Shown here in pieces: positions 31,301-64,000 of a stretch of 64,000 bases of DNA. This DNA is from Schmidtea polychroa. Taxonomy: Eukaryota. The stretch is taken from assembly GCA_044892525.1 (NCBI GenBank), contig CM097888.1, positions 69,812,001-69,876,000 of the forward strand, written 5' to 3'. Position 1 is the first letter of the stretch. Every line of letters begins with the position of its first letter. The translations under genes were made by a program, and so were the position numbers. Under the pieces are notes generated by a model. The model was given only the letters and a program-made list of their open reading frames with translations, was not told the origin of the DNA and made no database searches.

Positions 31301-34300
31301 TTTTTTTTAACTTTAGGAGTCGCTCAATCATAGGGACCAATGAGTTCCACCTGGTTTTGCAATCCAACAGTAAATGTAATTCTTTTTTTTCTTGTTCCAT
31401 AACATATTTTTGAAGAACATTTTTTCGAACAGCAGAAAATTTAAAAAATTTTATAAACAAAAATCTCTAAATGTAATGTTAGTGCACAGCCAACTCTGAT
31501 TATTATGTAAAATTCAAATTTTTGAAACGATAAAAATTTACTTTTTCGAAAATAAAATATCCGGATAATTGATTCAAAATATCCGGATTTCGAATTATCC
31601 GTAATTCAGAAAATATCCGGATAGCTCAAACCGATTATTATCCGGATTGCCATCCCTACTTATGTCGTTAGCTTTTGAACCTGATTTAAAAAATAATTCA
31701 GAATATGTGCTAGCAGCTTCTAATATAAACTATATAGATTGAATAATAAACGCGACGATTAAATTTAGGGAGATTTACTTATTCGCAGCTACTTTATAAC
31801 AAAAATGACAATACACTACAGGGGTGTTCGGTAGCATCCTGGTAGTCAACTCGGCAAATCAGAATTATAATCGCGATAAGTGTACTTGTTCCACAATTAA
31901 CGTTAATAGGAATATAGGTTGCTACTGAAATATAATAGGGATAAAAATGATAGCGATAACGAAAATGATAATAATATAAACAGGCCTAAATCGCGATATT
32001 AAAGATACTATTCTTTTCAGGGATAATAATTATAGTATGAATGGTGATAATAATAGCAACGGTCATAATAATAATAATGAGAGTAAATGACATAGTAATC
32101 GTATCAATGATAGTGTCTATAAATATGATAATGATCTTGTAGTCACAATAGTAAATAAAATGCTACATAACGAAAATATACTGATGTCAATGATACTGAA
32201 ATGATTGTCATAAAGATAATAAAAATCACTAGTAATAATATTCATAAGTGTCGAATTGATAGTTATTAGATTCACGAATGAGTGGCAAAGATAATATTAA
32301 TCATAACATAGAAAACACCATATGTAGTTTGTTATAGATCAGGCATCGAGTCATTGTCCTGGATCTCTAGATTTTCTTTCGTCGATACCGTGTATCCATC
32401 AGAAATCTCTGAGAGCACTGAATGTTCATAAAACTCGGAGTTTTTATTAATTAATTAAAACATAATTATACATTATTAAAGCATAAATAAAATCAAATGA
32501 ATGCCAACGTGTCGGGCTCTTGTTCATCCAGATTGTCATCCGTCCTATCTGATCCCGACAATCTTTGGGTCTCGTTGTCTCCATATTTCTGCCTTATTTC
32601 CTTTCGGTTGACTCGCTGGTGAATGAAGCCTATTGGTTTTGCATACTGACCCCACCAATACCATTCCTTTTAGCCATTTACTTTCTTGTAACATCACTTG
32701 AACGTATTTCAATTTTTTATGATAATATTAATAAAATCAAAAGTACCTAAATCGTTTAGGGCTAAAAAAATGTTTCATCGATATTAGCGTGCCCATATAG
32801 ATACTTCTAAAACATACATAAGGTCGATTGAAATTCATCGATAAAAAAATCACCCATCTAGAATTGCGTAGACGCCTTATGGAAACCTGACAAGTATTTG
32901 AAGGATCTCCAGAACATGTTCAAAAACAATTGAACCTATTCGAAAAATCATTACAGTGACTTCCGAATCTACCTAAGAGCTGGTGAACCTTGAAATGATC
33001 TCTCAATAACATATCAATGACCTCAAGATATTCGTATAATAATATCAAAACAATTTAAGTTCATTCTTAAAATACATGAGAAAATATTGGGTTCTATAAC
33101 TTGACGACTAATATTATTAGGAAACATTTGACCATATAATATATTTGGTTCAAAAGCTGTGAGCGAATTCAAAATTTCATTTGACTCTAAACTTCGATCA
33201 TAAAATATTTGATTCAGATTCTGTTAGCATATTCAGAAATTCATTTGATTCAAAAACATAAAGCATATCCAAAAATCATTTGATTCGAAAATTTGCGCAT
33301 ATCCTAAAAACTCTTAAATTCAAAATTAAAATTTATTATCAAAATTAGAGCATATCTTAGATATTGTTAGATAAAGTATTAAGACCGATCACAAATTTAA
33401 CCTGTAAATAAGAGAAAATATATTTCCTTAAACAATAATTATTCAATGTACAACTCATCAATTATCGGAGGTTATTCATATATTTTAAAGTGATGGCTTT
33501 CTGGTATCTGTGTATTCCGTGCCATAGTGACAATAGTCTTTTTAAGACTACTGTAAGGTTTGATAACAAGAATTCTGTATCACTTTTGACACAATATTAG
33601 TTTAGCTTTGCAATGATAAATTGTCTCGCCATTTATTATTAATTTTTAGGCTAAAATAAAGTTGCTGGAAGCTCAAAGGAATGAAACAAATATGCTCTTA
33701 TCTACCGACTTTTTATCAAGAAATAATAATGCAGAATCCAGTTTTCTATCTCCTTTATTGAAAGATTTAAAAAATGACTCCTATAACGATCTTTCAAAAT
33801 TCACCTCAAAAAATGAAGACATTCTGAGCAGAGAAATAAATGATATAGATTATAATATAGAAAAAGGTGCGTTGTTATATTTTTATTGACTGGAAGGTTT
33901 TATTTTTAATTATTCCTGGTCTAATAAGGTGGGTAGAAATTTTATTCCATCACGTCCAATAATTATTTTTCTTCTTATATTACTAGTTTAAGTACCCTCC
34001 AAAAATAATAATTATAATGTTAACAATAATATAAATAATAATAGAAGTAATAAATATATTTACCATATAATGATAACAATAATTGTGATAGTATGTGTAT
34101 AAACATATAACCATATATAAACACATATTATATAATAATTGCATAATATTTAGCCTCGCATTAATTTATAATCCGTCTCGTAAGTAATAATATTCATTTG
34201 TCCCTCTTACGCATATAGTGATCATCCACGTTGGTACTTACTACTATTACTACTGCAACTCTGGTTTCGATGTATCCAGTATGTTTCTCTATTCAAAATG

Positions 34301-46362: not shown

Positions 46363-47130
46363 AAGTCGCGTAAAACGAGGCATTAAAAAATACATGAAGA
46401 AAACAAAATGCATAGTAAATTAATTGAATAGTTTTCAAATGTACATACTTTTTAATATTTATTTAAATTATATTACACCTAATTCCGAAATTTAGTAACT
46501 TCTGTAATCTAAAAAAATCAATAAATTTATAGTATAGGAACACACAAACATACCTGTGTGTAGTGTTGCGGGTACACTACTCGGATGACCCTTTTCTAGT
46601 GCAGCTTTAGTCTAGAGGATGAATGCCCACCTTGATTTCGCCCATCATTTATTTGGTCATCGCCGAGCGGGACCCGTACATAACCTACACTCCAGCATAG
46701 CACCCGTGAATTGCTTCACGTTGGAACTGTGCTATGCCGGCGAGACGCCAGTAAGCAGGTGAGCCAGCTCCTTCGGACTACTCCTTACTGAGGCCTCGAC
46801 TTCCCAACCCTGACTGCCGATAGAAGGACTTACGTCTACTCATTCCGTCGCCCCTCGCAATAATTCTAGCTGAGTTTACCAACTGACTAATGCTCCTCAT
46901 AATTTTATGACTCTCAATGCCATTTACCAATTTCAACTCAACTGTCTTAAGGTGAGCACAAAGAAAAAACGTATGCAGACAAAAATGGTTTATTATTAAG
47001 GTTATCACACAAATATATCTAACACCTATACAATAAAATTCCCGACAACAGGAAAAGAGACAAAGGTAAAAATGTTATCAGACAATGTTCGGGCCATTTC
47101 AGAGAACGAAGACTTTTTACGGAGAAATTC

Positions 47131-47880
47131 TCATTTCTCCCACTCCGAGTCTGCCAATAGATCTTCCAAATCGAAAAACTCAGAGGCATTTTCCTCCCAG
47201 GTAACACCAGCGGCGGAGATGATTCGCCCTGAGATCACTGATGCTAAATCGATTGCTGCAGGAGGGTTGATGACTTTGATTGGATGATCCGACGATCGCG
47301 GGTTCTGTTTGGCGGTTACGCGTTCCCGCTGTTTCTTTTTGCGTTCGGCTCTCGATAATTGCCGACGCTTTGGTTTCGATGCCGTTGGATTGGTCGGGGG
47401 TGCTGCGGAGGTGGATGCTATCGCAGGTAGCACGTTACTGGTTCCGGTAAAGATGATTTCTGGTTCTTTAGGTGAGAGCTCGGTCTCTACGCACCCATGG
47501 CAAGGCTTTCCGACTGGAGAAGAAGACCCGCCCGAGATATCATGATGCGCTGGGAAGAGATTACCGGCTTCATTACTTGGGATCTTCGCGATCTTCCTTG
47601 TAATTGCTGCCTGGACGTATAATTTGTGCAGCGCCTCCGACTGCTCTTTTATCAGGCTCCTCTGCGCCCGACTCTCGGAAATCAACGCGTCTCTACAGTG
47701 CTCGCTTCGGTGCAGCTTCTTCTGAGCCTCCTTCATCTGGGTGGGACTGAACCATGTCCCCTCTAACTCATCTATCTTTCTTTTGTGCTTTCCGATCTGG
47801 GCCTGGAGCTCCTTGATAATTGAATTCTTGTCGGAGCAAGAAAAACAAGGTCGAAGAACGGTCTTGGAATTTGGCAACAT
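47131..47880 (-). CDS. 249-aa accessory protein: CxxC, coiled coil, CxxC, basic NLS-like patch, acidic-aromatic tail
   Basis: Intact ORF preceded by a strong acceptor TTATTCTCATTTTCCATTTTTTCCACAG, 8 nt before ATG. No family recognised. Confidence 0.6.
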   Translation of the reverse strand: MLPNSKTVLRPCFSCSDKNSIIKELQAQIGKHKRKIDELEGTWFSPTQMKEAQKKLHRSEHCRDALISESRAQRSLIKEQSEALHKLYVQAAITRKIAKIPSNEAGNLFPAHHDISGGSSSPVGKPCHGCVETELSPKEPEIIFTGTSNVLPAIASTSAAPPTNPTASKPKRRQLSRAERKKKQRERVTAKQNPRSSDHPIKVINPPAAIDLASVISGRIISAAGVTWEENASEFFDLEDLLADSEWEK

Positions 47881-50800
47881 TTGAGTGACTGTGGAAAAAA
47901 TGGAAAATGAGAATAATTAAATCGACGTGAGTGTCACCATCTAACCACATTCCGACTTTACTGATCATAGACAAAGATATGGGTTTACTAGTCAAGACAA
48001 GTTCTACTGTACGATGGATCCTCATACCTTTTGGATCTTTAATTGTAAGAGGATAAATCGATCAAACCAAATTTCGTACAAGGAAAGGAAGGTATTACCA
48101 TTTGTGAGAGAAATTCTAGGTCGATGAAAATGATTATTTAGTTAATCCGCTTGCAATCATTATCTCACGTTTACTGAGAGTCGAATTAAATTGTTGACTT
48201 TTCCCCCCGAACGAGTGATTTTGATGAGTGCATCATATACTGGGGTCGAGTGACTATCTATGGAAAAAGGGGTCCATAATGTCCGTTGATCAGTTCCTAC
48301 CGGATAAACGGAAAGTTATTTAATTTTTTAATTATTTATTCATTCTCTCTAATTACTCACATATGTGTTTTACCTGGTTTAAATAATATTCGATATTAAT
48401 ACTAATGATAATTATGTCAAAAATTGAAATAATTTCTGTGCCATTCATGCTAAGATAATAAAGAGAGAATAATCATAATTATGATCGGGTTTGGCATTAA
48501 AAATTATTGTCTTTATGATAACCGAGCACGGTATCAATGTGAGCTAGAAGCCGACCATTCCTGCTAGGTAGATAAGGAAATGTCAGCCCGGTGGTTGACT
48601 ATTAATCCGGAGCGGTGAAATCCGATACCTGTCGGTAGTTTAATTAGTTAATAGAAATTCCATCTGGTATGTTCAGTCTGATTTTACATGAGTAGGGACG
48701 GGTGTGACTTTACCCACTGCGCTTGGCTACTGTGTATGTCTGCAACTGGTGACGCATGCAAGGTGCGCTTTCACACACTTAATTATGCTACAAATGTATG
48801 TGTTCAATGTTTGCATGATGGCATTTCTCAGAATTTTATCTACCGCGAAATCGCTCACAGTTCTACTGCATATGATGATGATTTACTAATTCTCACCGGA
48901 TTATTGGAAAAATTATAATTATCTGTATTGCAAATGTTGGATATAGCTTGCTCCAAGGGTGGATTTTTCGTCTTTAATTCCTCAAGCCTAGTTTATCAAT
49001 CTACTCTCTAAGTGCTGGAGGATTTTTTCTATCTCTGCTGGATTGCCAACCTCATGTAATACTGGAATTTTGTATTTAACAAGATTATCGGCTAACTTGA
49101 AGAAATATATTTTCTTGGTTCGAATTGGTTGCATTTTTCATTGTTAAATTAGTTGATGCCAATAGTTTATGTAATTAGGATAATTAATTGTATGTAAATT
49201 CTTTTATATATAATTCTAAAAATTTATGATAGAGAATCATTTTATGTAATTTAAACGTTCATTTGGAACAAACTCGTTTTATGCAATTCTGAATCACTTT
49301 TTGGATTAAATCATTTTACATGGTTCTACCATTTATTCACAAGCAGTCATTTCGAGTAATCCTAATACTTATCTGAAGCCATCTACTTTGAACTCCCTTG
49401 CAACTATGTCTTTAAGAGAACTTTTAGATGAACGGAATAACAGTTCAGAAGGTCATAGGCTAAAAATTAGTCGGAACAGATTCTGAGTGAAAAATATGAA
49501 CCTCGAAGATATGTCACAGATAGCCTCACTAAGGTTTGAACAATTCTTGACGCACAACTTACATTGATGATGGAGAAAATTTTCTTAGCAAAAACGACAT
49601 TCAAAAACGATAGTGTGACACCCTCAATCACTGCGCGAATACATCAAAATTCTCCGATTCCCTTATTACATATCTTTGTTTTCAATCACTACATGACTAT
49701 CAATTTTCTGCCACCATTTACCTATAGATTTTAGTCGCACCTTCAGCAATTGGACCCGTGAAGAAGCCTTCACATTTCGGCCCAATCTAGCTGCGTGATT
49801 GAAATACCCTATGTCCACCGGTGGAGCTCCCGAAGGCACCTCACACCATGACATAGAGTATCTCAACGCCACGTTTCTCGCAAAATTGAATAGTCTCCAA
49901 TAATAATTCATAAAAATTGATTCGTAAAAGATCAATAATTCTTAACGAGCAAATCATTTATTATTAAGCAAATTATTAATTTAAATAAAGCATTCTAAAA
50001 TCAAACGAAAAGAAAAACCATTTTTCAAATTAAAAATATAATTAAACTATACGCATTACTTAAAAATTCAAAATAAGCAATCAAAAATCCTTATCGAATG
50101 ATTGATACTAGTATGGGCTGAGTCGAAAAGGGTACTATGTCAAATCAGTTAATGCTTGAATATCGTCTAGTTCTGTAAAAATCTCTTGAATCTTGGAATT
50201 GTCCTCGTGAGTTATCGTGCGTTAGTTGCTGGAGTTCTGTTCTGTCGTAGAATAGATTTACCTATTGAGGTGGTTTGATTAACAGTAGTTGTTATGTTTT
50301 TAATGCCTGCTTATATATTAATTTTTTGTTTGCGCGGACCAATTAGAATTGAGTACCGCTTAATTTTATTAATTTAATTTATTTTCCTTGTTTTTGAGTT
50401 ATTTCTTCTTATTTTCTTTATTAAAATTATGTTTTTATTTATTTTCCTTAATTTTCTTATTATTTACTATATTTTACGTTGTTTTCCGCCATTCTATTGT
50501 CCTATTTTAATTTTTTCTCATCTTTATATTTTTTGTTTTAATTCCTATTTTCTAATTATTGTTTTTCTTATGTTTTATTCTATTTTATTTGTCAATTTAT
50601 TTGTTTTTATTTTTTATTTTATTTTAGTTAAGTTTGCCCTAATTTCCCAACTACCCTTCGACTCAGCCCAACAAATCACTCGGGGACCCATCAAAATTGC
50701 GTCCCGCAATTGCATAGTTATCTTACTTCATGCATTCATAAAAAGGATATATCGAAACAATTATACTACAATAACAAAAACAATTTTATTCTAAGATATA

Positions 50801-50906: not shown

Positions 50907-51566
50907 CTAACCATTTGATGCTTCTGCTGACGGTTGTTGGTTGGTTTGGGTATTGGTGTTGAGATAGGTCTGATTGTTAGAATTCGGCTGGATTGGTTGG
51001 TTACTCGGGATTCGAGGTCGGAATGGGGTTGGGTTAAGATTTGTCAGTGGCACTTCTTGAGGATTTCTGTTCGAGATTACTCTTATTGATGTCGAGATTC
51101 TGCATCTATTTCTAACTTCGTAGATCTTCATGAGTATTGGTAGACATAGGAGGAGGGTTTCTGCGATCACCACATATATGAGATAATGGGTGTCATTGAT
51201 TTCGGGAGGTGTTTTTGGTTTTTCTACAAGATTTTCAAAATTCTCTTGTTGCATTTGTTGTTCCAACTGGTCGAATTGTTGAATTTGTTCGAGGATTTGT
51301 TTGTTTATCATTTTACAAATGGGATTCTTTTTACACATTGTTTGGATGTTGTTGATGTGTGATCGGGTTGATTGAATGGTTTGGATGATATGGATTTTTA
51401 CTGTCATAGGGTATGTGCATTGGCCGGATTCTTGTTTAGGTTCTTGATTTTGATTTCGGTAATCTCGTACGATTTTCGGTTGGGCGTTTACTTGTTTGTT
51501 CTCCATCAGAATCATCAATACCGTTATTGTTATCATCATCTCGCCTCGCATGATACTATTATACAT
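50907..51566 (-). CDS. Predicted type I membrane protein (signal peptide, small ectodomain with Cys, one TM, Pro/Gln/Asn-rich tail)
   Basis: Hydrophobic MMITITVLMILM...VNA/QP, MCKKNPIC, TM YLIYVVIAETLLLCLPILM. Start could be 51551 or 51539. Confidence 0.7.
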   Translation of the reverse strand: MYNSIMRGEMMITITVLMILMENKQVNAQPKIVRDYRNQNQEPKQESGQCTYPMTVKIHIIQTIQSTRSHINNIQTMCKKNPICKMINKQILEQIQQFDQLEQQMQQENFENLVEKPKTPPEINDTHYLIYVVIAETLLLCLPILMKIYEVRNRCRISTSIRVISNRNPQEVPLTNLNPTPFRPRIPSNQPIQPNSNNQTYLNTNTQTNQQPSAEASNG

Positions 51567-51607
51567 TCATTATGGTTTATTTACAATTGGTTTTAGTGAC
51601 CCCTAAT

Positions 51608-52372
51608 TTAATGATTCTGGTTTGGGTTATTTTCGGCGATTCTCATCAGGGTGGATTCCGCTTTAATAACTCTGTGTCTTAACTCGGGCAGCATTTCCAA
51701 CTGTCTGTTCTTTTCACGGGCCTCCCTTTTCATGTGCCTTATCTCCTTTTTCAGCCTTCTAATTTCTTCCCGTTTTTTGTCGAGGTTCCTTTTTAGTTCG
51801 ATTTGTAGGAAATCTTGTTCGTTTTCCTGCGAAAGGTTTCGTTGTTGTTGTTGTTGTTGTTGTTTTCTCTCGATCTCTTGGTATTTGCGAATCCATTTCT
51901 TCATTTCCTCACTTTCTCGTTGTTTTTCCTCCAATTGTCGATTTAATTTATTTATAGTTATTTGGTGTTCTTTCGCCTTGGTTTTCCAATAATCCTGGAT
52001 TACTTCTTCTGCCTTGAAGCTTGCCCTCTCTTGCCATAGTTCCTCTGCAATCTTTTCCCAGTTTCTTCCTCGTGTTCGTTGTTCTTGCAACCATTCATTC
52101 TTCTCTTCCGCTTCCCTCTTTATTTCTCCTAACACTTCGCACTCCTTCTTTAGTATTTTAATCATTTTTCGGTCTTCTATATATTTGTTTATTAGTCGCT
52201 CGTTTTCGTCCTTCTCTTCCCGTAACTTGGCCTTTAACGTTTGTGTTTCTGTTGTTTCTGCCTCAATCTCTCCCTCTTCTACGTCGCTCGTAATTTCTAT
52301 TATTTCCTCGATTTTCATATCTGTAATATGTACAGTTAATGGTGCGCTATAGTGCGACTTATACATATACAT
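51608..52372 (-). CDS. Coiled-coil accessory protein (E/K/R/Q-rich)
   Basis: Intact 254-codon ORF with heptad-like charged composition. Likely start 52318 (MKIEE). Confidence 0.7.
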   Translation of the reverse strand: MYMYKSHYSAPLTVHITDMKIEEIIEITSDVEEGEIEAETTETQTLKAKLREEKDENERLINKYIEDRKMIKILKKECEVLGEIKREAEEKNEWLQEQRTRGRNWEKIAEELWQERASFKAEEVIQDYWKTKAKEHQITINKLNRQLEEKQRESEEMKKWIRKYQEIERKQQQQQQQRNLSQENEQDFLQIELKRNLDKKREEIRRLKKEIRHMKREAREKNRQLEMLPELRHRVIKAESTLMRIAENNPNQNH

Positions 52373-52503
52373 TTATATAAAATTTTAATAGTTCGGGTTA
52401 CAGTCCCTTGAATACTTTTACAATACTTTAATTTTTTTTTTTTTTTTTTTTTTTTTGTTTGGGATATACGTCCCGATTTTTGTCTTTATCTTTTTATTCA
52501 CCC

Positions 52504-53559
52504 TTATACGAAGGTTTCCTCCTGTCCCACATAACCTTCGTCACTATCGACCGCTGGATGCAACTGTATCGCAATAGGGTCATAGGGTAGGTAATATTGG
52601 GGGATTTGAGCTCTCAATTCATTAACTTCATCTCTTAGAGCTCGAGTGATATTCAGCTCTTCGTCGAGCAGATAAGTGAGATACCTTGTCTCTTCGTCTT
52701 TCGCCTCTACTTGTCTATCTAAGGCCTTGATTTTCTCGTCGCCCTTCCATTTTTCAATTTCTATTTCCAAGTTTTTGATATTTTCGGTATACATTTTCCT
52801 CTCGTTTTCTAATTTTCTGTTTTTTCCCGCTAGGACCATGTTTCTTTGTTCTAACGATCCTTGTAGTCCATTAAGGTCTCTTTTCATCTCTTCGACCTGA
52901 TTTACTAATTCCACAACCCGTCCTGCTTGCTGGGTTATCATCTCTTCCATTGCAGCATTCTCGTGCTCTCTTATGTCGCATTTTATTGCCAAATGTCGTT
53001 CAAACTCCATAGCCTTCATCTGCCATGTTTGGCTTCGGGCGGCGACCTTTTTCAACCGTTTCAGTTCTTCCTTTATTATTAAATTTTCCTCCCATTTACC
53101 CTGTTCGCTCTCATATCCGAGTCTCATGGGCAATTCTTTCATCTCTTTTTTCATTTCATTGCTTTGTCTTTTCCATTTTCTCGCTTCTGCCACTAAGTGC
53201 ATCATTTTCCTTCCTTCTATTTGCTTTTCCGCTTCGCGCTTGGTGTTCTCATCGGTAAGTCTCTTTCTCGCTTCCTGCACTAGCTGCTTTAAGTAGTGGC
53301 TGTGCGCTTCTTGGCGGGTATTTTCTAGTGACGCCCATTTTGATGCTCTTTTGCATGCTTCTGCTTCCGCTCTTAAGTTGTGTATTAACCATTGGTATTG
53401 ACTATTCTCATCCTCTCTAGCTTCTTCGATGTGATTTCGGGTGAGATTAGTTAGTTGGAACATTACTTTGTTCCATTTTTTGTTATGTTCTCGGGGAATT
53501 TGTGTCTTGTTGACATTGGTTGGGACTATCGCAGTTTCGGTTAGTTTCTCTTGTGTCAT
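52504..53559 (-). CDS. Coiled-coil accessory protein, 351 aa
   Basis: Intact ORF, long charged helical segments, acidic C-terminus (DSDEGY). Confidence 0.75.
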   Translation of the reverse strand: MTQEKLTETAIVPTNVNKTQIPREHNKKWNKVMFQLTNLTRNHIEEAREDENSQYQWLIHNLRAEAEACKRASKWASLENTRQEAHSHYLKQLVQEARKRLTDENTKREAEKQIEGRKMMHLVAEARKWKRQSNEMKKEMKELPMRLGYESEQGKWEENLIIKEELKRLKKVAARSQTWQMKAMEFERHLAIKCDIREHENAAMEEMITQQAGRVVELVNQVEEMKRDLNGLQGSLEQRNMVLAGKNRKLENERKMYTENIKNLEIEIEKWKGDEKIKALDRQVEAKDEETRYLTYLLDEELNITRALRDEVNELRAQIPQYYLPYDPIAIQLHPAVDSDEGYVGQEETFV

Positions 53560-53753
53560 CTCTAAATCATAGACATCGATTAAGCTTTTTATTATGAAAA
53601 AGGAATTTATTCATTATTTGCTGTTTCTTTGGAAATTTTCGCATCATTTTTGGGTTTACGTATTTAGGGTTTTTCATACTATTATTATATAATATTTTAT
53701 TGGTTATATACACCGATATATACAGATTATTATATACAACATTATTCGATCGT

Positions 53754-55142
53754 TTACTCCGTTCTGCCCTTCTCCTCTTTCCTTACGGTCATCTTGATAT
53801 ACACCGTGCCATTTCTTGCCATATCTTCTACTTTTTGTTGTAGGATGAACGTAGGTGCTCCTGTTGCTGATCCTTCTTCTTCCGTAGGTCTCTGGTAACA
53901 CATTTGGTTTCCAGTTGTCTTGAAGCTTTGTTCGTGGATGTTTCGGTCATTCATTAGTGCAATATCGATTTTCGCCTGGAACGGCCACTCTATTATTTCG
54001 TCGTATTCTCCTTTACATAACAGAAAGAAAATCGAAAAGTGTGTGTCTAATCCGGTTCCGTCCCCGTTGGGATATATCTTCATTTTCATTTTGTACCCAT
54101 TTTTCCAAGAATGGAATGCAGGACTTGTTATTCTTGTCTCTTCTCCGGTTTTTGCTTTTCGTATTCTTTCCTTTACTCCCGTAATCTTCCATATGTAGGG
54201 TGCTGTTGGGGTTATCTCATTTAGATTTATTTCCCGTATTTTCTGATGTAGCTCCTTGGCCTGATTATTACTGATTTCTATTCGGTTTATTTGCATCTTT
54301 ATGTTTGCTCGGGCTTCTTCGAACGCTTCCCTTTCTTCTAGTAGTTCTTTGACTAACACTTTCAACGATGCTATCTCTATCTCCATTTGTTTTACTTTCT
54401 CCTCGCTTTCTTGTAACGCAGTCGACCACATTTCTGCGTGGGTTGAAGCATTTTCTACTAAATGATGTGGTAACTCCCCTCGGTGTAGTAGTTTCTGACA
54501 ACCCCATTTGCCTAGTACGCATGTCATTCTTTTCTTTTCACATTCCCTTAGATGCTGTGCCACCTTCATTATTTCCCCTTGGTTACATCCGTTTGGGCAT
54601 TCCCCACTGAACTCTGCACATACTCTCTCCTCTTGGACATTGTGATGTTTGAGGGTGAGATTTTTCCACGTATCTATTTCTCCACAGTGTTCACATCTTT
54701 CTAATCTCTCCTCACACTGCCTTTGATGCTCTTTTTCTTCGCTTGCTCGAATGGTTTTATGGCACCTTTCACACTGGCCAATTCTGTACATACATTCTCC
54801 CATATGTTGTACTACCTTCCATATTACTCCTTTCCATTCGCATGGGGCATTTTTGCATCCCAGGTTGGTGTTTAACATGTCTTTCACTGCGGCTTTATCC
54901 TCGTTAGTGTCTTCTAAACTCGATATTAGTGTCTCTTTACACACCGGGCACCTCTGTGGTCTATTCTTTATTGCTTCACTGATACATTCTTTACATACTC
55001 TGCATCCACATTGGGTTTGGTGGGGTTCTTTTAGTAACTTTTCACAGATTCCGCACATAACATGTTTGTGTATTCTGATCGTTGTAGATTTTCGGACTTG
55101 CTCGACAATCTCTCTGAACTCTTCTCTTTGTCGTTTATCCAT
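53754..55142 (-). CDS. TRAF-family protein (RING, TRAF Zn fingers, coiled coil, MATH/TRAF-C), intronless, 462 aa
   Basis: RING CGICEKLLKEPHQTQCGCRVCKEC...CPVC; Zn fingers CKNAPCEWKG..H...C and CEHC...H; MATH PYIWKITG...SPAFHSWKNGYKMKMKIYPNGDGTGLDTHFSIFFLLCKGEYDEIIEWPF. Confidence 0.95.
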   Translation of the reverse strand: MDKRQREEFREIVEQVRKSTTIRIHKHVMCGICEKLLKEPHQTQCGCRVCKECISEAIKNRPQRCPVCKETLISSLEDTNEDKAAVKDMLNTNLGCKNAPCEWKGVIWKVVQHMGECMYRIGQCERCHKTIRASEEKEHQRQCEERLERCEHCGEIDTWKNLTLKHHNVQEERVCAEFSGECPNGCNQGEIMKVAQHLRECEKKRMTCVLGKWGCQKLLHRGELPHHLVENASTHAEMWSTALQESEEKVKQMEIEIASLKVLVKELLEEREAFEEARANIKMQINRIEISNNQAKELHQKIREINLNEITPTAPYIWKITGVKERIRKAKTGEETRITSPAFHSWKNGYKMKMKIYPNGDGTGLDTHFSIFFLLCKGEYDEIIEWPFQAKIDIALMNDRNIHEQSFKTTGNQMCYQRPTEEEGSATGAPTFILQQKVEDMARNGTVYIKMTVRKEEKGRTE

Positions 55143-55227
55143 TCTATAATTATATGTACATATAGTTCTTATCGATACAGGTTCGATATTTTATTTACAG
55201 TTATTTACATTTTAAGCTAGGTTTGGT

Positions 55228-55587
55228 TTAGGGTTCGGAAGAGTCGGCTTCGTGTCCGCTCTCCTCTCTATTCATTAACCATTCCGACCAGTCTTCTATT
55301 TCTGTCTGTTCTGCTTCCTCCATCATTCTGTTTAGTTCAATTTCCTGTCTACGGCTATATTGGGTTATCCTCTCTATCTCTCTTTGCATTTGTTCGATTT
55401 TCAACCTCTGGTCTTCAATTATCTTCAAATAACTAAATCCTCTATTCATACTCTCGATTAGGTTTCTGTGCATCGTCAATCCTTGTTCTTGCAAATTGGA
55501 CACTAATTGTGCTAATACGGCACATTGTTGCTTCCATAATTCTTCAGTTACTGTATTGTGGTTCATTTCGTTATTTCCTTGATCCAT
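55228..55587 (-). CDS. Small coiled-coil accessory protein (~119 aa)
   Basis: The track ORF starts at TTG 55611; first ATG is 55587 (MDQGNN). Acidic tail resembles that of the 351-aa ORF (EADSSEP vs DSDEG). Confidence 0.6.
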   Translation of the reverse strand: MDQGNNEMNHNTVTEELWKQQCAVLAQLVSNLQEQGLTMHRNLIESMNRGFSYLKIIEDQRLKIEQMQREIERITQYSRRQEIELNRMMEEAEQTEIEDWSEWLMNREESGHEADSSEP

Positions 55588-55880
55588 TCTTAATTTATAT
55601 ACACTTTTCAACTCTTATTTAAAGTTAATTTTATTTTATGGTTCCCGTTATTGTATAATATTAATACCGCGCTTATATAAAGATATAGTACTGTTATATA
55701 CATAAGATATACTTACTTTTTACAATTATATACAGTCATATTCCTTTCTATATACGTGAGTTTGGAGGGCGCTGAGCGTTCCAGGCCTCCACCCACTGTT
55801 CCTGTTTGATAACACTTGGTCGTTTCACTCGATGTTGGAAATTTCTGATTCGGGTCATCTCTAATTCTCCGCGATGTCGT

Positions 55881-58800
55881 TTATCTTTGATTATTTTTAT
55901 TGTCGCCCCCCGTTATGATTAGGAAGGCCCCTGTTATTATTATCCCACTGATCCACATCATCTGCTTCACGCTTATATTCTCTGGTTTCTCCTTGTTCGT
56001 TAATGTTGATATCGCTTCTATACCTTTCTCGTTTCCTCTTTTGCCATTTCCTTTCATCATTTCCCGTATTCTTGCTATTTCCTCGTTCATACCCTCCTTT
56101 GCCATCTTTTGTATTTTTTCCATCTCTTCCTCCGAAACATAGTTGTCCTGAGCTTCCTCGCCGGTTTTCTTGTGCTTTCCTCCTTCGTTCTTTTCGTCGT
56201 GGTTTTTTCTTTTCTTTCCTCTTTTCCCTGGGTATCGTCGGCATTCTCTTTTTGATTCATTCCTCCAGATACAAACCGTGTATTCTTTCGGCGGCTGCTG
56301 CTGCGTCACATATTGATGGCATCTCTCACCTGGTCCTAATCTTGAAATACAGACTTTGTGCTCTCTTCTAGGTTGGAGCTGCGTTATTACTATTTCACCA
56401 CCTTTTCCTAGGTGTACCTCTTTTCCTTTAACGTTCGTTATTCTCTTCCCGTCTCGATTTCGGTATGCTTCTTGTATTCTTACTTCTGTTATTGGTTCTG
56501 TGTCCTCATTTATCAGTACTAGTTTCTGATACGCTCTAGACATGCATCTTCCTAGTATGCACCTTTCCTTTAAGTCCCATTCTTCCTTTAAATCCCACTG
56601 CTGCTCTTGTGCTTGCTTTTTCTTTTCTTGTTTTAGTTCATCCTCTTTGCTATCTTGATTCTCCGCTTCTTTGGTTTCTTTTATCGTTCTCGTCCCTCCA
56701 TGAGCTGTTACTAACTCTATCATGGTAAGCATAATTATCATTAATATCATATTTGTCTCTATTTCTTTGTTAGTGAAAGGTAGGCATACCCTCTGTTTTC
56801 CATTATTCGGTTTTTCCTCCTCTTTGGTCTTGGTTCCCGGGCTGTTTCCCTCTCTTTTCGTATCCAAATCCTTGTTTTCCGGTTTATCCTCTTCCGGTTC
56901 TCTTTTCCCTTTATCCTCTTTTCGGCCTTTTCCGTCATTGTCATCGTGTTTATCTCCCCCGCTGTCGTTTAAAATGTCGTCCTCGACATTTATATCGTTC
57001 AATAATCTGCGATATGCTGTTAGCACTCTGTTTCTTGCTAATTTTGCTTCGAATTCAAACTCTTTTCTACCCGTTGCAGCATGTCTCTTTCTATTCCATT
57101 CTTTAACTAACTCTCTCAATTGCATACGACGATGTTTCCCAATTCGTTGTTGCTCGTTCTGATTTTGCGTGAATTTTAGGTCTTCTCTATTTAATACTAT
57201 TAAAATAATTTTAGGCGTCCCCCCTTTAGTTAGGGTATTCTTTACCATCGCATTTTCTCCGTTTTCGTAGAATTCGTTTACATTTATCGCATATTTATTA
57301 TTTTGTGGTACCTTCCATGTTAATAATAATTTCATTGCTTCTAGATTTTTCCGTACCGTATTCCATTGAAATTGAGATGTGTTTTTGCACATATTCTCAA
57401 CTTCTTCTTTTGTCGCATTTTTGCAAATAAATCTGATCATTTCTAAGTTTGGCTGTATGGTTGCCCAGTCCAATGTGGAGTTCCCTTCGTTTGATTTTTC
57501 GTCTAGTCTCGATCCTGATTGATGTAAGATGTGGAGTGTTTTTGGGTGTATTTTCGTTATAGCTGCATACATCATGGCGGTTTCACCTTGTTCATTTTTC
57601 GTGTTGGTTTCCTCACCCATCTCCCCAAGGATTCTCATGATCGTTATTGCTCTATTCTCTTTTGCAGCTAGTATTGCTTGTTGTAGAGGTGTTCTGGAAT
57701 CCTTTGTTACCATCGTAAATGCTCGAGGCAAGAAGGTTTTGATTTTCCCGATATCTAAACCCGTGGTTTGATCTCTTGCGTATGTGTGTACGGCTTTTAT
57801 TATTTTGGACAATATTATTTCGTCTGGCAGCTCTAGCATTTCCTCAAAGAACACTTCTTTTGCTTTGCGTATTATTGCCTCTTGATCTATACTCATTGAT
57901 TTGGTTTCGATGACGTTGTTTGTGACCGTTTGGTTCGTTGTTGACTTTGATTCCCTTGATTTCTCATACCTTATTTTCGTTTTCTTTCCGTTTGGATTAT
58001 TGATTCGTTCCTCTGCTGTAAGTATTTGGATAATATCCAGGTAATTCTCGCGGATGTTATTCATTGTGTCCATCATATATAACACACTTACCGTTTCCCA
58101 ATATTTATTTCGTACTTGGTTAGTAAATTGGAATATTGATTTTTCGAATGTGTCGATTCGCTTTTTTGCTAACTGTTCATCTTTATGATTTGTGAATTTT
58201 ATCCCTCGTTCTAGTAATTGATTCGGAATTTCGAATAAATGATGTCCTTTCATAGCTTCTCTCATCAGCGTGTTCTCTCCTCTCGTGAACGCTTCGTTTA
58301 CGTTGATCATATAATCGTTTTGAATTGGATTTCTCCATGTAATTAATATTCCGGTAATTGTTGTCAGTTTCTCTTTGATCGCTGTTAATAATCCATCATA
58401 CATGTTTCCGACTTCTCGATTGTCCTCATATGATAGTAGTTCCATCAACGACGTGAACGCCTCGGTACTTTTCCCTTCGATAGCATGATGTAGAGCGTTT
58501 TTCCGCTCGTGGTCTTGTGTAGTTATTTTCGATCCAGTATCGAGTAATGCGGTTATAATGTCTTTTGTTTTGCCTCTGTTTGCGGCTATCATTAATGGTG
58601 TGTAACCTTGGTTGTTTGTTTGTTCTGTTGATCGCTTGCAGTCGTGAAATGCTTCTATTGTTTCTAGTATTTGCTCGTTGTTACCTACTTTCATGAGTTT
58701 GTGTAATGGTGTGTCTCCGTAATGATCTGTTATTGTAAATAATATTGGCCATTGGCTTTTGACTACTCGCAATAATGGGTGTGTCCTTTCTCTATTTGCA

Positions 58801-61800
58801 TAGTTCTCGATCATCGTCAATAATCCTCCTAATATTTCGAAATCTAATCGATCTTTTGCCCATCCAGGTATTTTAATTTTTACCTCTTTTACAATCTTTT
58901 CCGCTTCTGATGGTTGGATACCCAATCGTCCGGTGATCGGTTCTGCGAGTTGTTGCATCATGTTCATTCTGTAGGTTTGCGAACGTGTGGTTAATGTACG
59001 GCCCTCTGGTTGACTAGTGGCTGTTTTTGGAATTGATTTGCATCGTGCTACGTTTACGTATATTGGCCTGGTAAATGGGTTATTTACCAATTTCACTCTT
59101 ACATTGGTTTCGCCTACGAATAAGATCTCATATGGTCCTTTTCCGTTGCGTTGTAACTTTTTTGTGGTTCCTGGAATTAATTCCGGGGTTTCTATCATTA
59201 CCCAATCACCTGTTTGAAACGTATGTTGCTTCACGTTTTTCTTTCGATCGTGTAAATCTTTATAACTTTCCTGGTAGAACTTGATATTTAATCCCGCAGT
59301 TTCCCAAATCTCCTGCATTCTTTCCTTGAATTTCGTAACATAATCGTCGATCTCCATATACTGCGATATCGGTGGTTGGTATTCCAGGTCCATTGGCATA
59401 TTACATTCTCTTCCGTACATTAATTTGAATGGGCTCATTTTCGTTGATGCGTGAATCGACATTCTGTACGCCATAAGACATAGGTTTATATATTCGTCCC
59501 AATCTCGTTGGTGACGGTCAACGTAGTTTGATAACATTTGTATAAGTGTTCCATTAAATCTTTCCGTCATCCCATTGGTTTGGGGGTGGTATGGAGATGT
59601 TCTTAGTTTTGCTATTTTGAAGTAATTTGTTACTTCGCTCATTATCTCACTCATAAAATTAGTTCCCTGATCGGTTAATATCTGTTTTGGTGTTCCATAT
59701 CGGCAACATATCTCTTCTACCAGAATTTTTGCGATTGTTTTAGCTTTTTGGTCTGGCATCGCGAATGCTTCTGGAAATTTCGTAAGAAAGTCGGTAATCA
59801 CTAAAATATAAACGTTTCCTCTATCCGATTCCGGTAATGGACCAACTACGTCCATTGATATCATCGTCATCGGCTCTATTGGTACGGGCATTGGCGTTAA
59901 AGGCGCTTTCCATTTTGATCCAGTATTTTTCCTGGTCGCACAAGTTAGGCAATTTTTTACCCATTCGGTTACATCTTCAGTTAACGTAGGCCAAAAATAT
60001 TTCTGTTTCATTCTTGCTAACGTCTTTTTCGATGACATATGTCCTCCCAATCTCCCATCGTGATATTGCGTTAGTAACTCTTTTCGTCGGTTTTCCGGTA
60101 TACACATTAATCGTTTTTCCCCATCCATTATCAGCAACCAATCTTTCTCTATAATATATCGGTGTCGGTGTTTATCCATATGTTCTTTTAATTTTTGGTC
60201 TTTCGCATATACATCTGTCTTTCCGGTTTTTACATAATCGATAATTTGTTTTAATTCCGCGTCCTCTTGTTGGTTCTTTCGCAATTGACAGAAATCTAGG
60301 TCTTCTGCTACCATTAGGCATATGCGTTGCATTTCTGAATCCACCAAATCTGGAAAAATAAATCTTGACATACAATCGGCGTTGGCATTTGCTCTTCCCG
60401 CTTTGAATTTTATAAATGGGGAGTATTCTTGCAATTGCATGGCCCATCTCATCAGTCTACTGGACGCTTCTTTATGTTGCCCTAACCACACTAATGGTTG
60501 ATGATCTGTGGTTATACATATCTCATGTCCCCATAGTAAATATCGGAAGTGTTTGATAGCTTGTATTATAGCCAATGCTTCTCGTTCTGTTACCGAATAG
60601 TTCTTTTCGTGCTTTTTGAATGTTCGACTGTAATACCCGATTACTCTCTCTTTTCCTTCATCGTCTAATTGTCCCAGAATCGCGCCTGCCGCGTACCCGC
60701 TTGCATCCGTTGCCAATAGAAATGGCTTCTTAAAATCTGGGTGTACTAGGATAGGTGCTTCGATTAGTTTATCTCTCAGCGTTTCAAACGCCTCTTGTTG
60801 TTCCTTCCCCCAAATGAACGAAATGTCCTTCTTTACTAATTCCTGGATTGGTTTTGCAATTTCTGCATAATTTTTTATAAATTTGCGATAGTATCCGCAT
60901 AATCCTAGAAATTCCTGAACTTGGGTGACAGTTTTCGGTGCTGGACATGTTTTTATTTTCTCAATGTTTCTTGGATCTGGCTCCTTTCCTTTAGCTGACA
61001 CTATGTGTCCTAAAAACGTGACTTTTTCCTTTGCCCAATCGCATTTTGATGGTTTGAGTTTGAGTTTCCACTGTCTTAATCTAATAAATACGTTTCGGAT
61101 ATCTTCCAGATGTTGTTCAAATGTCGCTGAATAGATTAGTAAATCATCAATATATACCATACATTGTTTGATTCCATGAGTGACAAAGTTCATACACCGT
61201 TGAAATGATGCTGGTGCGTTGGTCAGTCCGAATAGCATTTTCCTGAATTGATATAGATCTCGTCCCAACGTGAAAGCTGTTTTCTCTTTGTCCTCATCTT
61301 TGACTTTAATCTGCCAGTATCCACTTTTTAGATCTAAAGAAGTAAAATATGCTGCCCCTTGCAACATCAATAACATCTCATTGATGTCCGGCAATGGATA
61401 GGTATCTCTCTTGGTTACTGCGTTTAACTTCCGATAATCGATACAGAATCGTTGGGTGCCATCTTTCTTTTTTACCATGACCACTGGGAATTGCCAGGGT
61501 GAGCAACTTGGTTCGATTACTTTTGCGTCTAGCATCTTTTGTACTTCTGCTTCGGCTATTTCTTTTTGCATTTCTGCTAGCTTGTATGGTCTTAATGCAA
61601 TTGGAGTTTCATCTATGAGGGGTATTGCATGTAGGGTAACATCGCATGTACCCAAATCTAAATCTGAGATGGCGAATATATCTTTATATTCTACCAACAA
61701 TCGGTGCAATTTTTTCTTTTCATCATTCGTCAACAACATACTATCTATTGTCCATAATTCATCATCTTTGATCATCTCGTTGGTCACTTTCGGTAATTCT

Positions 61801-64000
61801 ATGTCCATCATTGGGGTCAATCTTCCCAATTTTTCGTTCTCATAAATGATTTTGTCTTCCTCTTCGAAATTCGTGATGTTGAGCGGTATCACTCCTTCTT
61901 GGTTTATTGTGATTATTTCCCTTGCGAGTGGTAACTCTCGTCGCTTTTCAAATGACTTGCTTGGTTCAAAGATAACTTCTCCTTCCATACCCGTATCCAC
62001 TTTTATCTGACAAATCATCTGCGATTTTGCTGGTACTATTATTTTTTCTGGACATCTGATTACTGCATTCATTTTGCATATTCTACCGGTTTTGTCTTTT
62101 AAACACATGGTGGTTAAGTCAATTACGACTTCTTTTAACAATTCTGGCATCAAATCCGTTCCGATTATGCATGGTACGCTAAGTTTTGGTATTACTGCCA
62201 AATACGTTTCAATTTCGTTGTCCTGGTATCTCAAAGTAGTCCACCATCTTCCGACCACGTCCACTGTTTCTTTACTACATGCTATGATGTGAATTGTTGT
62301 TGATTCGATATCTTTCCAGTGTTTACTGGGGATTTGATTAATCGCTATCGCTGATACATTAGCTCCGGTGTCTATCATAGCATTGGTTTCTTTACCATTG
62401 ATTTGAATCATAACTGTTACTGCTGGACCTCCAGGTAGACTCATTGCTGCTATTGTTCTTACGTCATCTGCTTGATCTACACTTTTGGTACGTCGTGTTG
62501 GCATATAATGCATACCGGGTTGACTCGGTAATTGCGGATACATATTTTGTGTCATGGTCAAAGCTGCTTGTGGTCCCACGATATCCGGTGGTATGTAGCT
62601 TCCATTGGCGATCCAGGTATTTGTCTTTTCCTTTTCCCAATATGGTGCCGTTTCCATTGGTTTTTCGTTTGGGTTTCTGTTTGGATATAGACATTTATCG
62701 TTCCCGTTATCGTCGTCGTCACTATCGCTGTTAGATGATTGGCTTCTAAATCGGTTCAAGAATTTTGGCTTATTCTTTTTCAATTGTCGTCTTGTTGCTT
62801 CATCGTACATTACTTTCCGGAATCGTCTGCCTACTTCTTCGTCGGTTCCTTTAATCTTTGTTAATATTTTAATCAATTGCTTTATCCGATGAATGTCTTT
62901 TGAGTGACCATGTAATACCATGGTTTTAGCTAAAAATGGTAGAAAGCCTACTATCATTTTCCAATTTACTTTCTTTTCTCGCTTGTATATATCAAAACAC
63001 GCTAACATTTGTGTTAGTTTTACTCTGACTATCTGAATTATGAGTATGATCCCTAATATCCCGGCCATCATTTGTCCAAAAACTAAGAATCTTCCCCACA
63101 TTGCTTTCATCATGTTCGATGTGGCTTGTTGAAAATGGTCTGGTGATAGTAGCAGCTCGTAATTCGGGCCTGATTGATAATTTGTTCCCCCCGTTATTGT
63201 AACCATATTTGACAAAATGGATTCTCGTCTGGCTGGGAAGAGTACGTTAAGTCGTGCTGTTTCTAGATCTTCTGGGGAATACATACCACCGTTTGACACG
63301 TCTATAGGTTTGAAATCCAGCTCTGTGGCGAGTTCTATTAATCCAAATTTCTTGGGCTCCTCGGATATGGTTTTTCCCGGTAACATCATCCATTTCCCAT
63401 CGGGTCTTTCATACAAAGGTCCGTATGCATTAGAACAGTTAAAGAGATTTGGGTAGAAACCCACTGGATTCATAATTCTAGTGACTGGTTGGACGAATCG
63501 ATTTTGTCCTTTATAACGGATTTCTAATTCATTTGCACATCTCTTTTCGGGTAGTATGGATTTTTCTGGCATTCGTGCATACGTCTTGGTACACTGGTAT
63601 GTGTACATCACTTCTCCTACCATTCTACCAAAATGTCCATCTGGTAATGGGAGTGATGGCATTGTGTTATCTGGGTGTGTTATCGCAATAGCTAACTTGG
63701 TTTTCAGTATTTCTTTATTCAATGAACAATCGTTTTGTATCAGATCGTAATATACTTTTTGCAAGGTCGTTTGTCCACGGTGAAATAGAAAATCCATTTT
63801 ATTATTTGCATATAAGTATAGTTTTACGTCCTCCGTTGCTATCTTTCCCACTGCTCTATCGATTATTTGTCTCGACATATAGATACCAGCGTAATTGGTT
63901 TTATATACTATACTGTCACATTTGGTGGTTTCTTTCTCTTTGATAAATCTCATACCTAGATCTGGATCGTCTGTGATTAATGCTGTTGGTGTCTTCTGCG
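55881..64000 (-). CDS. Polyprotein >2700 aa: chuvirus-like glycoprotein-TM-protease-RT-RNase H-integrase-2x ankyrin module-membrane tail; 5' end outside window
   Basis: The frame stays open upstream of ATG 63953 (QKTPTALITDDPDLG). G-like GEVMYTYQC..CANEL..FVQPVTRI..C..GKW; TM 63027-63089; DTG 62364-62372; YIDD 61143-61154; ATDASG ~60700; HHCC ~59937-60070; DVVGP, TDQG, ERFN integrase core; GPY ~59135; ankyrins DTPLH, GYTPLMIAA, KNALHHA. Confidence 0.95.
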   Translation of the reverse strand, partial: QKTPTALITDDPDLGMRFIKEKETTKCDSIVYKTNYAGIYMSRQIIDRAVGKIATEDVKLYLYANNKMDFLFHRGQTTLQKVYYDLIQNDCSLNKEILKTKLAIAITHPDNTMPSLPLPDGHFGRMVGEVMYTYQCTKTYARMPEKSILPEKRCANELEIRYKGQNRFVQPVTRIMNPVGFYPNLFNCSNAYGPLYERPDGKWMMLPGKTISEEPKKFGLIELATELDFKPIDVSNGGMYSPEDLETARLNVLFPARRESILSNMVTITGGTNYQSGPNYELLLSPDHFQQATSNMMKAMWGRFLVFGQMMAGILGIILIIQIVRVKLTQMLACFDIYKREKKVNWKMIVGFLPFLAKTMVLHGHSKDIHRIKQLIKILTKIKGTDEEVGRRFRKVMYDEATRRQLKKNKPKFLNRFRSQSSNSDSDDDDNGNDKCLYPNRNPNEKPMETAPYWEKEKTNTWIANGSYIPPDIVGPQAALTMTQNMYPQLPSQPGMHYMPTRRTKSVDQADDVRTIAAMSLPGGPAVTVMIQINGKETNAMIDTGANVSAIAINQIPSKHWKDIESTTIHIIACSKETVDVVGRWWTTLRYQDNEIETYLAVIPKLSVPCIIGTDLMPELLKEVVIDLTTMCLKDKTGRICKMNAVIRCPEKIIVPAKSQMICQIKVDTGMEGEVIFEPSKSFEKRRELPLAREIITINQEGVIPLNITNFEEEDKIIYENEKLGRLTPMMDIELPKVTNEMIKDDELWTIDSMLLTNDEKKKLHRLLVEYKDIFAISDLDLGTCDVTLHAIPLIDETPIALRPYKLAEMQKEIAEAEVQKMLDAKVIEPSCSPWQFPVVMVKKKDGTQRFCIDYRKLNAVTKRDTYPLPDINEMLLMLQGAAYFTSLDLKSGYWQIKVKDEDKEKTAFTLGRDLYQFRKMLFGLTNAPASFQRCMNFVTHGIKQCMVYIDDLLIYSATFEQHLEDIRNVFIRLRQWKLKLKPSKCDWAKEKVTFLGHIVSAKGKEPDPRNIEKIKTCPAPKTVTQVQEFLGLCGYYRKFIKNYAEIAKPIQELVKKDISFIWGKEQQEAFETLRDKLIEAPILVHPDFKKPFLLATDASGYAAGAILGQLDDEGKERVIGYYSRTFKKHEKNYSVTEREALAIIQAIKHFRYLLWGHEICITTDHQPLVWLGQHKEASSRLMRWAMQLQEYSPFIKFKAGRANANADCMSRFIFPDLVDSEMQRICLMVAEDLDFCQLRKNQQEDAELKQIIDYVKTGKTDVYAKDQKLKEHMDKHRHRYIIEKDWLLIMDGEKRLMCIPENRRKELLTQYHDGRLGGHMSSKKTLARMKQKYFWPTLTEDVTEWVKNCLTCATRKNTGSKWKAPLTPMPVPIEPMTMISMDVVGPLPESDRGNVYILVITDFLTKFPEAFAMPDQKAKTIAKILVEEICCRYGTPKQILTDQGTNFMSEIMSEVTNYFKIAKLRTSPYHPQTNGMTERFNGTLIQMLSNYVDRHQRDWDEYINLCLMAYRMSIHASTKMSPFKLMYGRECNMPMDLEYQPPISQYMEIDDYVTKFKERMQEIWETAGLNIKFYQESYKDLHDRKKNVKQHTFQTGDWVMIETPELIPGTTKKLQRNGKGPYEILFVGETNVRVKLVNNPFTRPIYVNVARCKSIPKTATSQPEGRTLTTRSQTYRMNMMQQLAEPITGRLGIQPSEAEKIVKEVKIKIPGWAKDRLDFEILGGLLTMIENYANRERTHPLLRVVKSQWPILFTITDHYGDTPLHKLMKVGNNEQILETIEAFHDCKRSTEQTNNQGYTPLMIAANRGKTKDIITALLDTGSKITTQDHERKNALHHAIEGKSTEAFTSLMELLSYEDNREVGNMYDGLLTAIKEKLTTITGILITWRNPIQNDYMINVNEAFTRGENTLMREAMKGHHLFEIPNQLLERGIKFTNHKDEQLAKKRIDTFEKSIFQFTNQVRNKYWETVSVLYMMDTMNNIRENYLDIIQILTAEERINNPNGKKTKIRYEKSRESKSTTNQTVTNNVIETKSMSIDQEAIIRKAKEVFFEEMLELPDEIILSKIIKAVHTYARDQTTGLDIGKIKTFLPRAFTMVTKDSRTPLQQAILAAKENRAITIMRILGEMGEETNTKNEQGETAMMYAAITKIHPKTLHILHQSGSRLDEKSNEGNSTLDWATIQPNLEMIRFICKNATKEEVENMCKNTSQFQWNTVRKNLEAMKLLLTWKVPQNNKYAINVNEFYENGENAMVKNTLTKGGTPKIILIVLNREDLKFTQNQNEQQRIGKHRRMQLRELVKEWNRKRHAATGRKEFEFEAKLARNRVLTAYRRLLNDINVEDDILNDSGGDKHDDNDGKGRKEDKGKREPEEDKPENKDLDTKREGNSPGTKTKEEEKPNNGKQRVCLPFTNKEIETNMILMIIMLTMIELVTAHGGTRTIKETKEAENQDSKEDELKQEKKKQAQEQQWDLKEEWDLKERCILGRCMSRAYQKLVLINEDTEPITEVRIQEAYRNRDGKRITNVKGKEVHLGKGGEIVITQLQPRREHKVCISRLGPGERCHQYVTQQQPPKEYTVCIWRNESKRECRRYPGKRGKKRKNHDEKNEGGKHKKTGEEAQDNYVSEEEMEKIQKMAKEGMNEEIARIREMMKGNGKRGNEKGIEAISTLTNKEKPENISVKQMMWISGIIITGAFLIITGGDNKNNQR

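Follow-up and report, generated by a model that had tools for sequence, protein, structure and literature searches.

A doubled ankyrin module behind the integrase of a giant Burro-type retrotransposon in Schmidtea polychroa

Why should the integrase of a retrotransposon be followed, in the same reading frame, by two copies of an ankyrin module, and what may these copies do? The question is raised by a stretch of 64,000 nucleotides (nt) of the Schmidtea polychroa genome (assembly GCA_044892525.1, contig CM097888.1, positions 69,812,001 to 69,876,000; the window hereafter). There a frame that is open over 2705 codons (55881-63998) encodes the C-terminal half of an envelope protein (Env), then protease, reverse transcriptase (RT) and RNase H, and finally integrase with two ankyrin blocks behind it. 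It belongs to a giant gag-env-pol long terminal repeat (LTR) retrotransposon of the Burro type. We lean towards the reading in which a doubled module of about 300 amino acids (aa) sits in the cargo slot of such an element, is likely cut by the element protease and would act as a cytosolic binder of host signalling or cell-death factors. Element features within the window are given in window positions and lie on the minus strand.

The first-pass annotation of the window had proposed that the integrase frame continues into ankyrin repeats doubled at a distance of exactly 1020 nt. This holds: the frame is open, the annotated coordinates are right to within about 10 nt, and the motif pairs lie exactly 340 aa apart, namely DTPLH (aa 1762) and RTPLQ (aa 2102), GYTPLMIAA (1798) and GETAMMYAA (2138), TWRNP (1887) and TWKVP (2227), and GENTL (1907) and GENAM (2247). 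Module A (58002..58910; Ank_2 E 3e-16 and alignment) opens with helices at its N-terminus, continues with three canonical ankyrin repeats and some degenerate ones, and closes with a helical extension at its C-terminus. Module B (56973..57869; Ank_2 E 1e-8 and alignment) follows 340 aa downstream. We note that 340 aa is the period; the alignable part measures about 245 aa in the A/B pair and about 300 aa once the module of a sister family from the same genome is included. Canonical ankyrin sequence accounts for only about 95 aa per module (the three repeats and the degenerate ones). A structure model of module A folds as an ankyrin array, its confidence being limited to residues ~10-175.

The modules share 60 of 234 aligned residues (26%; BLASTP E 9e-14), and their alignment score of 168 compares with 41±7 in 1000 shuffles (maximum 76). 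Of all ungapped diagonals (n=680), the offset of 340 is the best with 146, the runner-up reaching 60. Nucleotide identity at the 1020-nt offset is 42% versus 28.5±2% at other in-frame offsets. The likeness of A and B exceeds generic ankyrin similarity, because none of 263 ankyrin-rich proteins compared with A or B reaches 168 (best 148) and because the C-terminal third, which carries the specific signal, scores 101 versus a best of 65 among these controls. Taken by itself, the canonical ankyrin core lacks specificity: A versus B gives 58, and each of the 263 controls scores at least 58 against A. The N-terminal part (A versus B, score 36) is likewise unspecific. The concern that the modules might align only generically can thus be set aside. 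An assembly artefact as the source of the pair is ruled out by hundreds of candidate copies.

The family yields 360 candidates at the DNA level, and all 40 scored are 98-100% identical; among 999 protein candidates, the 150 scored are 91-100% identical, and 3 of them have a stop in module A. The element family is young and large and has spread recently. From the GPY motif of the integrase through the end of module B, 35 of 38 distinct fetched copies are free of stops, the 38 having been chosen as best matches and thus leaning toward intact ones; a stop after the integrase in most copies, which the first-pass annotation had reckoned with, is not seen in this sample. Of 30 bins, 29 are covered, mostly at 90-95% identity, by a sequencing run whose RNA nature is a guess of ours.

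The same annotation had taken the open frame of both modules as a sign of duplication followed by selection, and the copies bear this out. In 20 copies the ratio of non-synonymous to synonymous polymorphism (pN/pS) is 0.03 in the integrase, 0.11 in module A and 0.15 in module B (non-synonymous/synonymous variants 9/22 in A and 16/27 in B; Fisher p about 1e-9 for the modules). Both modules are under purifying selection. In the linker between the modules pN/pS is 0.49 and not significant (p 0.39). This bears on the idea that the second module is a neutral passenger, kept since the frame must reach the C-terminal membrane protein. A and B indeed share 21-26% identity with each other, against the 30% that each shares with the sister module, and the sister manages with one module. 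However, the deficit of amino-acid changes is strong in both modules and not in the linker. Since open-frame selection alone would not spare the modules but not the linker, the passenger idea is largely refuted, and we consider it highly improbable.

What stands behind the integrase in related elements? The sister family is 87% identical to the window family in RT and 77% in integrase, and it has one module only. Thus the enzymes are 77-87% identical between the two families, and the modules and the TRAF protein about 30%. The sister frame has 4791 aa with MATH inside the polyprotein. MATH occurs twice in this family (L090:2-9901, L139), once in the polyprotein and once in a TRAF accessory open reading frame (ORF), and a BIR-RING ORF accompanies it. 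The sister module is nearer to A in its N-terminal part and nearer to B in its C-terminal part. A gain of the second module here and a collapse in the sister cannot be told apart, because both histories predict such mixed affinity and three sequences only are at hand. In a third env-bearing family of the same genome (RT 49% identical) there is no module, and the integrase runs directly into a signal peptide.

Outside this genome, the search with integrase and module, which covered proteins of up to 4734 aa, brought up 23 relatives; an ankyrin Pfam domain is found in none of them. A profile of the module, run against the post-integrase tails longer than 30 aa among 26 relatives, matches in two, the window family and its sister. 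In a tree of 26 RT-RNase H-integrase sequences (a quick IQ-TREE run with all 26 kept) these two are paired with support 100 within an eight-member clade, also with support 100. A search for other Burro-like families that started from 7 TRAF loci of intronless appearance revealed no module. The relatives P0266, P0267 and P0270 carry, as judged by eye, an aspartic-protease-like stretch with DTG/DSG motifs in the post-integrase position; P0266 and P0267 show an additional stretch of this kind ahead of the usual protease, also by eye. We thus read the post-integrase stretch as a variable slot, since the sister has one module, the third family none, and P0266, P0267 and P0270 the protease-like stretch: its content would range from no ankyrin module through one to two, or be cargo of another kind. 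Relatives do without the module, and the integrase therefore works without it. Integrase-ankyrin fusions, which the first-pass annotation had proposed to look for elsewhere, thus recur in the sister and not in the third family or the 23 outside relatives.

Behind module B follow a charged, acidic low-complexity linker (56793..56972, defined from sequence; the sister family has a similar one) and a C-terminal membrane-protein unit (55881..56750). By hydropathy the latter consists of a signal-peptide-like segment (56700-56750), an ectodomain and a transmembrane segment (55911-55961). This second membrane protein, built of signal-like segment, ectodomain, transmembrane segment and tail, ends the polyprotein in all three families of this genome (L090:3290-4846 and L085:3751-4953 in the other two, from the layout of hydrophobic segments), and the outside relatives P0267, P0269 and P0270 have the same layout. 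The ectodomain gave no Pfam family and no usable Atlas match, and its single-sequence model has a mean predicted local distance difference test score (pLDDT) of 47. Judged by eye, the ectodomain may resemble fibronectin-III. The position of the modules directly ahead of an internal signal peptide and of a membrane protein present in all three families suggests another role: the double module, released or membrane-anchored, could be a structural adaptor of the element that connects, while particles assemble, the capsid or the pre-integration complex with membranes, with Env or with the C-terminal glycoprotein. A single polyprotein also implies that the modules are made 1:1 with Gag and Env. However, relatives of the same gag-env-pol-glycoprotein plan lack the module, and the module diverges far faster than the enzymes. 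We consider the adaptor role unlikely, though not far-fetched.

Are the modules separated from the integrase? Retroelement proteases cut at recurring hydrophobic border motifs, and a five-residue motif of this sort recurs where domains of the polyprotein meet. It stands behind the Gag domains and behind the protease, between RNase H and integrase (RICLM) and between integrase and ankyrin (RMNMM), and also ahead of the last signal peptide (RVCLP). In its stricter form the border pattern is found 11 times versus 2.3±1.5 in shuffles (0 of 1000 reach it). The pattern [IM]N[MIV]M is found 5 times versus 0.18 expected, four times in Gag and the fifth time at the integrase/ankyrin border. Here RMNMM (58956..58970), of the motif class of the four Gag sites, is the predicted protease site between integrase and module A. 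With training on Gag and enzyme borders it ranks first of 1180 positions, and it is kept in 49 of 50 loci. The predicted second site, RVCLP (56778..56792, from motif scoring), lies ahead of the signal peptide and ranks 2 of 1180 with enzyme-border training and 5 with Gag and enzyme training. In the sister family RIFML stands at the integrase/ankyrin place and RICMM right behind the in-frame MATH. From these motifs we suggest that the module pair is likely released from the integrase by the element protease.

Several observations weigh against this release and against the role in the host that we lean towards. With training on enzyme borders only, RMNMM falls outside the top 8 of 1180 positions. 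RIFML of the sister ranks only 6 of 881 (3 with Gag training), and the pattern [IM]N[MIV]M is absent from that family, where the stricter patterns are borderline (5 versus 2.15, reached by 52 of 1000 shuffles, and 2 versus 0.3, reached by 40 of 1000). The loose pattern is not enriched in the window family either (20 versus 14.5±3.8; 92 of 1000 shuffles). All border patterns were picked after the sequence had been viewed. The fast divergence of the module between families could reflect loose constraint on a scaffold. Finally, the searches gave no specific host homologue or target, and both sequence and fold matches are generic ankyrins.

If the modules stayed on the integrase, they could tether integration to chromatin in the way of a chromodomain. 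The in-frame fusion immediately after the GPY/SH3-like domain fits such a tether, and the histone-reading ankyrins BARD1 and SLF1 are among the tied fold matches of module A. However, the border motif sits in the linker between integrase and ankyrin, and a product in which integrase and modules stay joined would have a signal peptide at its end if the second site, too, stayed uncut. The insertion-site bias proposed as a check gives a picture for the flanking sequence: 22 host flanks from 30 loci (two pairs identical, leaving 20 distinct) are AT-rich, have no tRNA gene within 1.5 kb, and share a repeat in one pair only, a bias for chromatin state lying outside this comparison. We regard the tether as distinctly unlikely. 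Of the two functions offered in the first-pass annotation, the protease-released effector has gained from the border motif and the variable slot, and the tether has found no support. Release is favoured because the border motif stands in the integrase/ankyrin linker and because relatives have nothing, or different cargo, in the slot; the effector is thus better supported than the integration tether.

The searches for relatives of the module, covering proteins of up to 4734 aa, gave generic matches throughout. Against 1.84 billion representatives, the best 150 matches listed hit ankyrin cores only. Two homologue searches, PDB sequences and the Atlas gave generic ankyrins only, and the viral contigs searched with the module gave one weak match. 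In a fold search of module A against solved structures the C-terminus of p100/NF-κB2 comes first (Z 12.0, root-mean-square deviation 3.6, 138 aligned residues), tied with designed and other ankyrins; Foldseek against PDB returns a generic ankyrin list. Among viral folds a planarian nidovirus ankyrin is first (E 7e-4) and the IκB-like protein of African swine fever virus (ASFV) third, again as ties. No F-box or SOCS-box family was detected with the modules by Pfam. A search for host NF-κB through PF00554 found nothing and is uninformative; PF16179 gave one host Rel gene, presumably NFAT-like, and no specific module match lies within ~50 kb of it.

We suggest the following course for the released module pair. 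The element protease would cut at RMNMM, at the end of the integrase, and probably also at RVCLP, before the signal peptide. The product would be a double module of ~725 aa, soluble if RVCLP is cut; with RVCLP uncut it would be anchored to the endoplasmic reticulum by the signal segment. Two diverged copies could widen or retune binding. We infer a host protein as the target, because TRAF and an IAP (inhibitor of apoptosis)-type RING ORF accompany the modules here and BIR and MATH in the sister, and because the modules are constrained within the family despite their fast divergence between families. A bolder scenario would have enveloped elements with a swappable, protease-flanked slot between integrase and a second membrane glycoprotein, in which a host-derived IκB-like module would have been doubled and retuned in an arms race, convergent with the nidovirus ankyrin; together with the TRAF and IAP-type cargo the module would make up a toolkit against immunity and cell death such as large DNA viruses have. 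We hold this scenario to be improbable.

The element that carries the modules has the features of Ty3/gypsy (Metaviridae): TG..CA LTR ends, a target-site duplication and the order protease, RT, RNase H, integrase. The broad Burro-like features are also present, i.e. a total length above 30 kb (the unit is 30,396 bp with LTRs of 4110 bp, taken from sequence neighbouring the window), multi-kb LTRs, a single polyprotein of ~5,000 aa whose first part is Gag plus CCHC knuckles, an Env that lies between gag and protease in the same frame (PF24664), and ankyrin plus TRAF/MATH cargo. The polyprotein of the window family has ~4,700 aa, a 4732-aa frame being found in 59 of 150 scored copies by hand count. 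Within the window, the C-terminal half of Env (a Monjiviricetes-type fusion protein) with its transmembrane segment, the protease, a spacer, RT and RNase H occupy 60423..63998, in frame with the integrase (PF24664 E 6e-42, RVP E 5e-10, RVT_1 E 5e-34, RT_RNaseH E 4e-39). The integrase (58971..60311, borders approximate) has a zinc finger, a core, the GPY motif at 59138, an SH3-like end and a basic TRSQT tail (Integrase_H2C2 E 8e-21, rve E 2e-12, SH3_Tf2-1 weak with E 0.012).

In the upstream part a Pfam scan gives Retrotrans_gag, zf-CCHC knuckles, the Env start and the IAP-type RING ORF; a ubiquitin-like domain is a weak match below the cut-off (E 0.007). The RING ORF lies upstream of gag without BIR (L021:8041-8544, minus strand), and a 74-bp tandem repeat separates it from gag (L021:6956-7476). 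BIR was not found in the window family (0 of 150 scored among 309 candidates at the window's place), and by Pfam its pre-env frames contain no MATH. Neither the window family nor the sister gave a Pfam match for BCL2-like or dUTPase-like domains, for which PMC6431247 used HHpred instead. Downstream of the polyprotein is a block of five accessory ORFs (50907..55614, from the ORF list) of 128 aa, TRAF, 368 aa, 254 aa and 219 aa. The TRAF ORF (53754..55190) is intronless with RING and MATH (TRAF-mep_MATH E 2e-25, RING E 9e-5). The others gave no significant Pfam family, those of 368 and 254 aa being coiled-coil-like by composition. Host MATH/TRAF exons form large clusters (G000:C2, ~105-124 Mb and 3-5 Mb), which fits the many planarian TRAFs.

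The 3' LTR of 4110 bp with TG...CA ends (46564..50673, from LTR comparison) contains an open frame of 261 aa (47131-47916, minus strand) without a Pfam family. The element stands in an LTR-internal-LTR-internal-LTR arrangement, which extends from window position 46564 to G000:C4:69915243 and has one 4-bp target duplication outside. Its three LTRs are near-identical (first versus third 100%), and its two units are 99.97% alike; it may be a genuine dimer in tandem or may stem from a duplication in the assembly. The element copy of the window has a broken frame upstream of Env and again directly behind the last transmembrane segment, where it stops 44 codons short of 17 of 18 other fetched copies. 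The primer-binding site, which we take to resemble tRNA-Pro, stands several bases off the LTR end (L110, L113 and six more loci). Elsewhere in the window Pfam marks hAT, piggyBac-like, Tc5/pogo and other retroelement remnants (2-1210, 9164-9856, 12322-12897, 28794-29402, 30542-31306, 39330-41230).

How does this element compare with known ones? Ankyrin, TRAF/MATH and in-frame env are already on record for Burro elements, which the first-pass annotation did not recognise; this makes ankyrin here less surprising. The planarian Burro/GYPSM1 exceeds 30 kb and has a 4,873-aa ORF1 with env in frame between gag and pol; among its cargo are motifs of the MATH/TRAF, BIR, BCL2-like and ankyrin kinds, and an interference with apoptosis and ubiquitination of the host has already been suggested (Arkhipova and Yushenova, PMC6431247, where the elements are traced to Jurka 2007 and Grohme 2018). 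Burro1 is reported to be abundant, active and controlled by PIWI-interacting RNAs in planarians (PMC8532177). The published ankyrin cargo is a domain label only. The series of zero, one and two modules, the candidate cleavage sites and the membrane unit add testable predictions on product size, location and partners. If such elements do release signalling inhibitors, a major genome parasite would be linked with immunity and cell death in an animal that serves as a model of regeneration; as it stands, the result is an anatomical refinement of a known element type.

The window family is like Burro1 and Burro-like elements in its length of more than 30 kb, its polyprotein of ~4,700-5,100 aa with Gag and knuckles first, in-frame env, ankyrin, TRAF/MATH and IAP-type cargo, and high copy number. 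Unlike Burro1/GYPSM1, it has no MATH in the polyprotein, BIR was not found, TRAF is a downstream accessory ORF, and the ankyrin part is doubled. The sister family, with its 4791-aa frame, MATH, BIR-RING ORF and single module, fits the description of Burro1 better. Chary and Hayashi describe GAG-ENV-POL errantiviruses of Platyhelminthes with an Env of the HSV/gB type (HSV, herpes simplex virus), including six Schmidtea elements with a coding span of 14.5-18 kb (PMC13524379). Our element shares their gag-env-pol order, and by eye its Env resembles those of Smed_errantivirus_1, 2 and 4; its exact Env peptides do not turn up in that paper's material as searched. The main text of that paper contains none of the words 'ankyrin', 'Burro' and 'TRAF', and 7 supplements do not contain 'ankyrin'.

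The integrase of chromoviruses bears a C-terminal chromodomain (PMC13524379), and here too an extra domain lies C-terminal to the integrase. However, no chromodomain is found by Pfam, and the extension of ~1,000 aa is preceded by a predicted cleavage site and terminates in a membrane-protein unit. As in the IκB mimics of viruses (the IκB-like protein of ASFV, the vankyrins of polydnaviruses) and in the poxvirus ANK/F-box proteins, a short ankyrin array is carried here by a parasite; unlike in these, the modules are embedded in a retroelement polyprotein, and their fold ranks are ties. The polyprotein of the planarian secretory cell nidovirus carries an ankyrin domain that was proposed as an IκB mimic (Saberi et al., PMC6211748), and the host homologues of that domain are Rel-ankyrin proteins. 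It belongs to a different virus group, and its fold match is all but equalled by those of viral ankyrins unrelated to it (E 1e-3 to 1e-2). In the literature searched, as far as its accessible parts go, there is no description of a duplicated module, though the drawings of Burro-2/3/4 may show a double ankyrin box, and its Burro papers make no mention of the post-integrase position of the module or of a second membrane protein. Within that literature, this locus thus adds to the known Burro plan the tandem duplication, the series of zero, one and two modules, candidate sites of cleavage and a second membrane protein.

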